Below are positions 57,337 through 58,323 of a stretch of 64,000 nucleotides of DNA, piece after piece. Numbering within the stretch: position 1 is the first letter of the stretch; every line of letters begins with the position of its first letter. Position numbers and translations under genes: made by a program. This DNA is from Escherichia phage AV101: the sequence record OQ973471.1; one strand, written 5' to 3'. The notes beneath the pieces were generated by a model. The model saw nothing but the letters and a program-made list of their open reading frames with translations. It was not told the origin of the DNA and did not search any database.

Positions 57337-57344
57337 TATAAATA
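57337..57344 (+). promoter_or_regulatory. T4-type late promoter core TATAAATA
   Basis: Exact TATAAATA about 35 nt upstream of the plus-strand structural-like gene at 57379, in a divergent intergenic region. Confidence 0.5.
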
Positions 57345-57378
57345 ATAACAGTTATTTTATTTAAGTGGAGTCCTCATC

Positions 57379-58323
57379 GTGGAAGACTATCGCAATTTTA
57401 TCACACAGATGTTACATCGGGGCTTGTCGCGCAAAAACCGCTTCAGAGTGACCATCCCTCTACCACCAGGGATCTTTGACTCCAATGCCACTCTGGCTAA
57501 TGACGGAAAGGCGTACAGAACCAATTCATCTTTTGGTGACTTGTTTAAGCAGTCAGCCCGTATTGTAAACGCTTTCTTTGGAGGGACAAACCAGACGTCC
57601 CGTTCCCTTCAGATGATGTGTATGGTTGCCTCATTGCCAGGGGTTGGTATCGACACCACTCCAATGACAAGCAACGGTAATCACATCAAGATGCCGAACA
57701 ACAAGTCCAACGTCGACCTCGACTTGTCATTCTTATTAGCCAATGACTATTATGAGAAGTCTGTGATGGACAAGTGGAAGAGTCTGATCTTTGATCCACA
57801 CACCACCAAAATGGGATATTACGAAGACTTCGTGACTGACATATGCATTGAACAGCTTGATACCGAAGATCAAGTGGTCCACCGCGTCTACATCGTCGAG
57901 GCTCACCCAATAAATTTCAGTTCTATTGAGCTGGATAAAGGTGCCACAGACCAGTTCAACCAGTACAACATTTCTTTCTCTTACAACAAAGTGCTTTCGG
58001 AGACAGAATATGAAACACGCAGCCTTTCCAGCGATTTTCTTCCTCTCGGCATTGCTGACGCTCTTACCAGTGGTGACTGGGAAACTGCGGCCTCAAAAGC
58101 CGGACAACTTTATCGCAAGGTGAAAGAAGGGAACTTCACAGGAGAGGCTCTCCTGGCTTACAAACAGCTTGACCAACTTGTAAACAACCTGGCTGGGATA
58201 AGCATACAGGACTTCGAGCGCATCTCGGTAGGTATCTCTCGTGACATCATGGGTAACGATAACCTGACGGCGGCGGAGAAGACAAGCCTGTTGGGGTTAT
58301 TGAAAGACGTGATGGGAAAATAA
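57379..58323 (+). CDS. Putative virion structural protein (tail-tube / baseplate tail-tube-initiator-like)
   Basis: GTG start; N-terminal ...KNRFRVTIPLP resembles the start of tail-tube-fold proteins; sits behind a late promoter. Low certainty. Confidence 0.35.
   Translation: MEDYRNFITQMLHRGLSRKNRFRVTIPLPPGIFDSNATLANDGKAYRTNSSFGDLFKQSARIVNAFFGGTNQTSRSLQMMCMVASLPGVGIDTTPMTSNGNHIKMPNNKSNVDLDLSFLLANDYYEKSVMDKWKSLIFDPHTTKMGYYEDFVTDICIEQLDTEDQVVHRVYIVEAHPINFSSIELDKGATDQFNQYNISFSYNKVLSETEYETRSLSSDFLPLGIADALTSGDWETAASKAGQLYRKVKEGNFTGEALLAYKQLDQLVNNLAGISIQDFERISVGISRDIMGNDNLTAAEKTSLLGLLKDVMGK

Follow-up and report, generated by a model that had tools for sequence, protein, structure and literature searches.

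What does a solitary plus-strand gene with the look of a virion component do inside the minus-strand replication block of Escherichia phage AV101? In the window (that is, the whole stretch of 64,000 nucleotides from record OQ973471.1 that was analysed), the first-pass annotation had placed a tail-tube-like gene, preceded by an exact TATAAATA, between the single-stranded DNA-binding protein gene and other early genes, and had offered module shuffling or a misassigned function as explanations. By comparing sequence profiles, predicted folds, gene order, spacer motifs and published virion proteomes, we document the homology, fold, conserved synteny and motif conservation of this gene and the presence of its orthologs in virions. 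Taken as a whole, the locus is very probably best explained as a known gp54-type junction gene that is likely to be read from a T4-type late promoter and that forms an ancient divergent pair with gp2.

The locus and its neighbours

In a megablast search, the 3-kb locus was 98.5% identical to Escherichia phage A221 and 93% identical to Shigella phage phiSboM-AG3 (AG3); 271 records match, nearly all of them phages of Enterobacterales, and the relatives examined in detail all belong to the Ackermannviridae. The product of 57379–58323 is 100% identical to the AV101 protein in the database. On this sequence evidence, AV101 is an Agtrevirus (that is, a ViI-like phage). The features of the locus are as follows.

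56621–57325, minus strand: gp2 DNA end protector gene (PHROG 429, E 1.6e-67; annotated gp2 in AG3, A221 and LIMEstone1)
57333–57336, minus strand: Shine-Dalgarno sequence of gp2 (CTCC on the plus strand)
57337–57344, plus strand: TATAAATA box (exact match), candidate gp55/gp33-type late promoter of gp54, 34 nt before the GTG
57358–57365, minus strand: CTTAAATA box (TATTTAAG on the plus strand), candidate late promoter of gp2, 32 nt from the gp2 ATG
57367–57370, plus strand: Shine-Dalgarno sequence GGAG of gp54, 8 nt before the GTG
57379–58323, plus strand: coding sequence of the gp54-type baseplate/tail-tube junction protein ('tail tube initiator'), 314 aa, GTG start, TAA stop
58325–58344, no strand assigned: stem-loop of 8 bp between the convergent gp54 and gp32 genes, where the AG3 and LIMEstone1 records have terminators
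58350–59360, minus strand: gp32 single-stranded DNA-binding protein gene, convergent with gp54 (PF08804, E 1e-56; PHROG 224, E 3.8e-100)
59707–59952, minus strand: gp33 late-transcription co-activator gene (PHROG 254, E 2.8e-20; annotated gp33 in AG3 and A221)

The gene is indeed single on its strand, as had been stated: from about 42.4 to 62 kb, 57379–58323 is the sole gene on the plus strand. The start previously given, 57337, marks the promoter box rather than the gene; an exact box does begin there, spanning 57337–57344, and the coding sequence begins at 57379, with its GTG 34 nt beyond the box. This GTG start is backed by the agreement of homolog N termini, which begin at the same point (M-E/Q-D-Y/F...), and by an N-terminal helix predicted with pLDDT >90. 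The Shine-Dalgarno sequence is kept in relatives as GGAG or GGGTGG, and the Maynard record carries a ribosome-binding-site annotation at this position.

The supposed setting among early minus-strand genes holds on the right, where the neighbour is the gp32 gene, but not on the left, where the gene lying divergently 53 bp away encodes gp2 and is not an early or replication gene. In T4, gp2 is a late virion protein. A RuvC-like gene near gp54 likewise has a late-type box. Because gp2 adjoins gp54 and this RuvC-like gene carries such a box, the surrounding block is not purely early. The hairpin at 58325–58344, with a T-run on the minus strand only, makes a good intrinsic terminator for gp32 and a weaker one for gp54.

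Assignment of the product to gp54

The product is matched end to end by PHROG 3629 ('tail tube protein'; E 3.7e-176) and also by phrog_45, a broad family of tube proteins (E 1.6e-24). A local Pfam scan returned no family at E up to 0.01; given that PF23849 is precomputed in the protein database for all homologs, we consider that scan uninformative. In searches of PDB sequences, a gp54 chain ranked best whether the query was the single sequence (marginal, E 0.014), a 21-sequence profile (E 1.9e-6) or a 62-sequence profile, which matched the gp54 chains 9ufn_C at E 2.3e-13 and T4 5iv5_W at E 8.7e-9. With the last of these profiles, the KP1 'baseplate subunit' was second-best (E 3.9e-10), the KP1 tail tube 9ev2_T1 reached E 8e-8 and T4 gp19 (5iv5_R) E 1.5e-6, such that the lead of gp54 is about 7 orders of magnitude over T4 gp19 and about 5 over the best tail-tube chain; gp48 and gp3 chains were absent at E up to 1. 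The profile alignment covers query residues 73 to 264 and reaches residue 311 of the 321-aa gp54 chain. An exhaustive HMM search showed the family to be large: at E up to 1e-3 it has 7453 cluster representatives, and many of these are about 300 aa and match end to end; a word-indexed homolog search with two profile rounds gained few extra sequences.

A gp48 identity for the 57379–58323 product was considered and rejected: the profile search returned no gp48 chain, and BLASTP of the product against the window's own gp48 homolog (gene at 37483–38451; PHROG 230, E 7e-114) gave E 8.5 (that is, no significant similarity). In AG3, a gp19 gene lies at 107847–108380, beside the sheath gene, and gp48 (in the window) and gp19 (in AG3) are therefore genes separate from gp54. 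The profile ranking, the length of the protein with its C-terminal extension and the existence of these separate genes lead us to place the protein with gp54 rather than with the tube monomer. As judged from sequence profiles and structural models, 57379–58323 encodes the Ackermannviridae ortholog of T4 gp54, the protein of the baseplate/tail-tube junction. The suspicion of a misassigned function is not borne out, as sequence profiles, the predicted fold and the detection of orthologs in virions by mass spectrometry all speak for gp54.

The product resembles T4 gp54 (PDB 5IV5 chains W/BG; 9UFN chain C), its best profile match, in length (314 aa versus 320–321 aa, about 35 kDa), in having a C-terminal extension past the tube fold, in being, to judge from orthologs, a probable minor virion protein and in its candidate late-type promoter box. 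It differs in sequence, at about 17% identity, and in an inserted low-confidence loop at residues ~31–69.

Predicted fold

The coding sequence divides into two predicted domains.

57379–58023, plus strand: tail-tube (gp19/Hcp-like) fold domain, residues ~1–215
58024–58320, plus strand: C-terminal helical extension, residues ~216–314, absent from tube monomers and present in gp54

AlphaFold prediction from 21 close homologs gave a pLDDT of 52.7, and prediction from the 62-sequence alignment with distant representatives gave a mean pLDDT of 78.3. In the model, residues 1–30 and 70–215 lie above pLDDT 90 and make up the beta-sandwich core of the tail-tube (gp19/Hcp-like) fold, interrupted by the loop noted above; the C-terminal helical region is lower, its helices (residues 223–313) being modelled at low confidence (pLDDT 50–87). 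The C-terminal extension is kept in full-length homologs. With Foldseek, the best match was a 308-aa 'baseplate subunit' of Klebsiella phage KP1/Lilla1 (E 5e-12). The tail-tube-like N terminus noticed in the first-pass annotation is thus right both by sequence, in the profile search, and at the level of the fold, and the comparison with tail-tube and baseplate folds that it had called for leads, from a core predicted above pLDDT 90, to a baseplate subunit. This KP1/vB_Kpn_Lilla1 subunit (PDB 9F4A/9F4B, chain BQ) is similar in length and was deposited in a baseplate-cup entry and in an entry for the interface between the cup and the tube and sheath, although it comes from a different phage lineage and shares only ~13–16% identity. 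T4 gp19, unlike the AV101 product, is half as long, lacks the C-terminal helical domain and is a polymerising major subunit.

Orthologs in virions and the role known from T4

That the gene looks structural, which virion proteomics was to decide, is confirmed for orthologs in two phages. In purified LIMEstone1 virions, ORF50 (gp54, 35.06 kDa) was detected by ESI-MS/MS with 7 unique peptides and 24.5% coverage (PMC3296691); in its sequence record, this ORF is a 'confirmed structural protein' in the syntenic position between gp2 and gp32, and the Dickeya-phage orthologs of the LIMEstone1 group are ~92% identical to the AV101 product. In virions of the Kuttervirus Sajous1, a 'Baseplate tail tube' protein was found with 24 spectra, compared with 89 for the tail sheath and 52 for the tube, and the conserved-gene table of that study gives the DNA end protector and the ssDNA-binding protein as the two neighbours of the baseplate tail tube protein (PMC10892097). 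Both phages have a separate entry for a tail completion protein (PMC3296691, PMC10892097). By homology, the AV101 product would sit at the tube/baseplate junction as a minor component of the virion.

In T4, gp48 and gp54 (35.0 kDa), present in six copies each, are bound at the top of the baseplate dome, and the tube protein gp19 polymerises on the platform that they make (PMC3004832). The six T4 gp54 subunits, which have the tail-tube fold, are arranged as a ring seated on gp48 and the gp27 hub. For AV101, we infer from the T4 case both that gp54 forms such a hexameric ring in this position and that it starts the assembly of the tube. The Ackermannviridae are without the T4 outer baseplate proteins (PMC3184105), and the contacts of the C-terminal domain of gp54 may for that reason differ from those in T4. 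A literature search for a cryo-EM structure of an Ackermannviridae baseplate found none.

An old and conserved gene order

In the AG3 record, orf073 ('Gp54 baseplate tail tube initiator') lies between gp2 (orf072) and gp32 (orf074) and is followed by bidirectional terminators. AG3 orf073 and LIMEstone1 ORF50 are direct orthologs of AV101 gp54, with the same locus, neighbours and terminator. The order gp2(-)/gp54(+)/gp32(-) is found in every Ackermannviridae genus sampled (Agtrevirus, Limestonevirus, Kuttervirus, Taipeivirus, Miltonvirus and Nezavisimistyvirus) and also in the Vibrio K471 group, at a protein identity of 34%; in Pseudomonas phage pf16, the divergent gp2/gp54 pair with a spacer of 50–56 bp persists at 28% identity. 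From five Ackermannviridae genera to pf16, the gp2/gp54 spacer bears TAAATA-type boxes on both strands. The GC content across the gp54 gene (0.45–0.49) is the same as that of its flanks.

Nor is a scattered baseplate gene unusual for these phages: in AG3, baseplate genes occupy three widely separated regions, and gene 073 is the one named as initiator of tail tube and baseplate (PMC3121705). All three islands can be recognised in the window and in its relatives: the first (37483–42360) contains gp48, gp53, a tail protein and a PHROG 3799 protein, the second consists of gp54 alone and the third, from near 62.1 kb, of gp26, gp5 and gp25. Strand is no marker of timing in the Ackermannviridae: in AG3, the replication genes share their strand with the main structural module. 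The location of gp54 is that of a T4-like mosaic in which late genes are scattered among early and middle genes (that is, the normal and ancient layout of the family).

Two other accounts of the gene can be weighed against this evidence. That gp54 belongs to a structural module recently shuffled or horizontally acquired into the replication block would fit its position as the sole plus-strand gene among ~20 kb of minus-strand genes, and it would fit the gene order of T4, in which gene 54 adjoins gene 48; in AV101, by contrast, gp54 is divergently paired with gp2, ~20 kb from gene 48. Yet the gp2/gp54/gp32 order in six Ackermannviridae genera and Vibrio K471, the survival of the divergent pair in pf16, the ordinary GC content and the three-island arrangement already described for the family (PMC3121705) make this account extremely improbable; a recent horizontal acquisition was rejected on the conserved synteny and the GC content, and the module shuffling proposed for the locus fails with it. 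It is also very unlikely that the product is not a junction protein and instead a second major tail tube protein (that is, a gp19 paralog) or a gp3-like tube terminator. Many GenBank records do name it 'tail tube protein', but the profile E-values favour gp54 by the orders of magnitude given above, 314 aa with a gp54-like C-terminal extension contrasts with the 163 aa of gp19, AG3 has a separate gp19 gene beside its sheath gene, and the 24 spectra in Sajous1 fall far below those of both sheath and tube (PMC10892097); the tail completion proteins listed separately in LIMEstone1 and Sajous1 also speak against it. We retain the gp54-type junction protein in a place that is normal for the family.

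A candidate late promoter

The exact TATAAATA said to lie upstream of the gene is present on the plus strand at 57337–57344. In the 64-kb window, this 8-mer occurs twice, compared with 0.77 expected, and 16 of 100 shuffles reach at least two copies; the number of exact copies, which is at the level of chance, was accordingly discarded as evidence for a promoter. Position and conservation are more informative. Half of the TAAATA copies in the window (9 of 18) lie 20–55 nt upstream of an ORF start on the same strand, compared with 0–27% for permuted hexamers of the same composition, among which TAAATA is the best positioned. In a comparison of the gp2/gp54 spacer across nine phages, TATAAATA was exact and in the same position in Agtrevirus, Kuttervirus (Maynard), Taipeivirus (KpS110), Miltonvirus (3M) and Nezavisimistyvirus (Bue1); the box reads TATAAGTA in the Dickeya phages (one mismatch to TATAAATA) and CTAAATA in Vibrio phage K471 and Pseudomonas phage pf16, and the bases flanking it vary freely. 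LIMEstone1 has TATAAGTA on the plus strand where AV101 has TATAAATA, and in its record only the box on the minus strand, that of gp2, is annotated.

In the structural module of AG3, (A/G)CTAAATA lies 31–51 nt upstream of gp22, gp18, gp14, gp6, tailspike genes and large structural genes, and the variants ACTAAGTA or ACTAATTA precede gp23, gp20 and gp19. As the commonest box of the ViI-like family is CTAAATA, in the form (A/C/G)CTAAATA, the ATAAATA at gp54 is to be seen as a variant. Nor is the motif exclusive to structural genes: the DNA polymerase gene, too, has a TAAATA box (GTTAAATA) upstream of it. The candidate resembles T4 late promoters in its exact 8-mer ~34 nt before the start codon, with no need of a -35 element, and in the accompanying factors: the gp33 gene in the window indicates that AV101 probably encodes T4-type late transcription machinery, and the genes for gp55 and gp45, which would lie outside the window, are reported for the relative AG3 (PMC3121705). 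It differs from T4 in that the box prevailing in the family, (A/C/G)CTAAATA, is nearer to the pf16 and Vibrio K471 version. The CBA120 paper described the late promoter sequence of the ViI group as not identified (PMC3184105), and our literature search returned no transcript mapping, RNA-seq or timing data for any Ackermannviridae phage.

Based on the position and conservation of the box, gp33 in the window and gp55 and gp45 in AG3, a gp55-type late promoter is the best reading, and gp54 is most likely expressed from such a T4-type promoter, TATAAATA at 57337–57344, whose activity and late timing we infer from sequence. The proposal that the gene is driven by a late promoter thus survives as a plausible candidate promoter, supported by position and by conservation across genera, and not as an excess of exact boxes over chance. 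Recognition of the box would be by the core RNA polymerase of the host together with the phage gp55 sigma factor and gp33, giving a gp54 mRNA with a 5' UTR of ~29 nt and a 3' end near the hairpin at 58325–58344; folding of the predicted gp54 and gp2 late transcripts revealed no significantly structured 5' UTR (z -0.85 and +1.0, respectively).

Face-to-face boxes in divergent spacers

The spacer upstream of gp54 holds a second candidate. The minus-strand gp2 box is kept as TATTTAA in all Ackermannviridae loci compared and in pf16, and the LIMEstone1 record labels the same gp2-side hexamer a 'putative late promoter'. The gp2 box lies inside the predicted gp54 5' UTR and the gp54 box inside the presumed gp2 5' UTR, which places the two interleaved and face to face. 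Late transcription in T4 starts ~6 nt after the box; were this spacing to apply here, the predicted gp2 and gp54 starts would fall within ~3 nt of each other. The gene and its head-completion neighbour, gp2, are an ancient divergent pair across a 53-bp spacer holding both candidate boxes. The same design recurs at the pair formed by the gp4 head-closure gene and gp48, with boxes at 37443–37448 and 37465–37470, and the two-box design of gp4/gp48 is found in Maynard and Bue1 as well. Both divergent pairs have spacers of 50–56 bp and set a head-completion gene opposite a gene of the tube/baseplate junction.

How these boxes are used admits readings other than a compact pair of late promoters. In one, TATAAATA is incidental and gp54 is transcribed from a host sigma-70-type promoter at the same spot, or otherwise, and not strictly late. 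A consensus scan did find a sigma-70-like site matching at 10 of 12 positions (TTGCCA-16 nt-AATAAT, 57319–57346) that overlaps the box, and this account draws further support from the chance-level number of exact TATAAATA copies and from the family's dominant late box being CTAAATA. Such sites, however, occur in the region at the rate expected by chance (4 found versus 3.4 expected), and the -35-like hexamer shares bases with the gp2 start codon, itself conserved, which offers another explanation for the conservation of the hexamer; moreover, as far as pf16 and Vibrio K471, the TAAATA core is kept in spacers that have otherwise diverged, and the product is, to judge from its orthologs, a virion protein, so we consider a sigma-70 origin unlikely. 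It is quite improbable, too, that the conserved interleaved layout is a regulatory device in which exclusive occupancy by polymerase balances or alternates the expression of head-completion and tail-initiation genes, as the recurrence of the design at gp4/gp48 might suggest. We regard the interleaved boxes rather as the compaction, into a 50-bp spacer, of two promoters that need no -35 element. Such interleaved pairs of candidate late promoters could be a test case for promoter interference in gp55-dependent transcription.

Significance for annotation

Publications on AG3 (2011) and LIMEstone1 (2012) had already described the gene, with its name, scattered position and presence in virions, and the finding has little import past annotation hygiene. 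As regards the description from which we started, the gene, the box, the neighbouring single-stranded DNA-binding protein and the structural, tube-like reading stand, and the oddness of the placement does not. The comparison across phages supports xTAAATA, mostly CTAAATA, as the candidate late-promoter core of ViI-like phages. For the gene itself, a defensible annotation would be 'gp54-type baseplate/tail-tube junction protein, 314 aa, GTG start'. GenBank names for the ortholog vary between tail tube protein (used in many records), tail tube monomer, baseplate hub protein and hypothetical, and some records carry wrong starts, giving products of 233 or 379 aa.

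Candidate late-promoter boxes elsewhere in the window

The arrangement seen in the gp2/gp54 spacer recurs at a second divergent gene pair in the window:

37441-37472, both strands: face-to-face box pair between the head-closure gene gp4 (36818..37432, minus strand) and gp48 (37483..38451, plus strand)

Here, CCTAAATA on the plus strand stands 34 nt ahead of gp48 and CTTAAATA on the minus strand stands 32 nt ahead of gp4, a geometry identical to that of the gp2/gp54 spacer, and the pair is kept in both the Kuttervirus Maynard and the Nezavisimistyvirus Bue1.

The same box, CCTAAATA, also occurs in combination with a potential RNA structure:

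3498-3537, plus strand: box and hairpin upstream of ORF 3534..3998

RNA folding of this interval predicts a strong hairpin directly 3′ of the box (arms AAAUACCCCAUAC...GUGUGGGGUAUUU; −21.9 kcal/mol, z −7.0), the 3′ arm of which contains a Shine–Dalgarno-like run (that is, GGGG) and abuts the ATG of the ORF. An RNA that begins approximately 6 nt past the box is predicted to be unstructured (−2.1 kcal/mol). In T4 genes e, soc and 49, the ribosome-binding site is sequestered in read-through transcripts and the late transcript alone is translatable; the layout at 3498-3537 resembles this device. The tailspike genes orf210 and orf213 of Shigella phage phiSboM-AG3 (AG3) are preceded by the same TAAATACCCC...GGGGTAT pattern as ORF 3534..3998.

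Boxes are also found ahead of two genes of DNA metabolism:

6045-6052, plus strand: GTTAAATA, upstream of ORF 6092..9091, which synteny with AG3 identifies as the gp43 DNA polymerase gene
61117-61122, minus strand: TAAATA box, upstream of the RuvC-like resolvase gene 60488..61078

The first stands 39 nt ahead of the DNA polymerase start, and AG3 has the identical sequence. Either late genes share the TAAATA core with genes of other classes, or a late transcript of the DNA polymerase gene exists as well. The second precedes its gene, which encodes a RuvC-like Holliday junction resolvase, by 38 nt, and the record of Dickeya phage LIMEstone1 marks a putative late promoter at the corresponding place, upstream of its ruvC gene. 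The box ahead of the RuvC-like gene recalls T4 gene 49, which has a late promoter.

Gene starts and annotation

For one further gene, both the start and the promoter are tentative:

62059..62979, plus strand: gp26 baseplate hub homolog, longest ORF (306 aa)

This ORF is longer than the annotated genes of AG3 and Escherichia phage A221 (218 aa); its PHROG match begins at residue 39, and a candidate box, TATAATTA, lies within it, 28 nt ahead of an internal ATG near 62172.

GenBank annotation of the gp54-type ortholog is inconsistent across relatives in both starts and names (including A221 21123-21824 and the proteins P0007 and P0019). Differing starts give 233-236 aa in A221 and JA15 and 379 aa in SeF3a, whereas the length supported here is 314 aa; the names comprise tail tube protein, tail tube monomer, baseplate hub protein or subunit, baseplate tail tube initiator and hypothetical protein. 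A local Pfam-A scan of the 57379..58323 protein returned no family at E values up to 0.01; in a large protein database, Pfam PF23849 is precomputed for every homolog of this protein.
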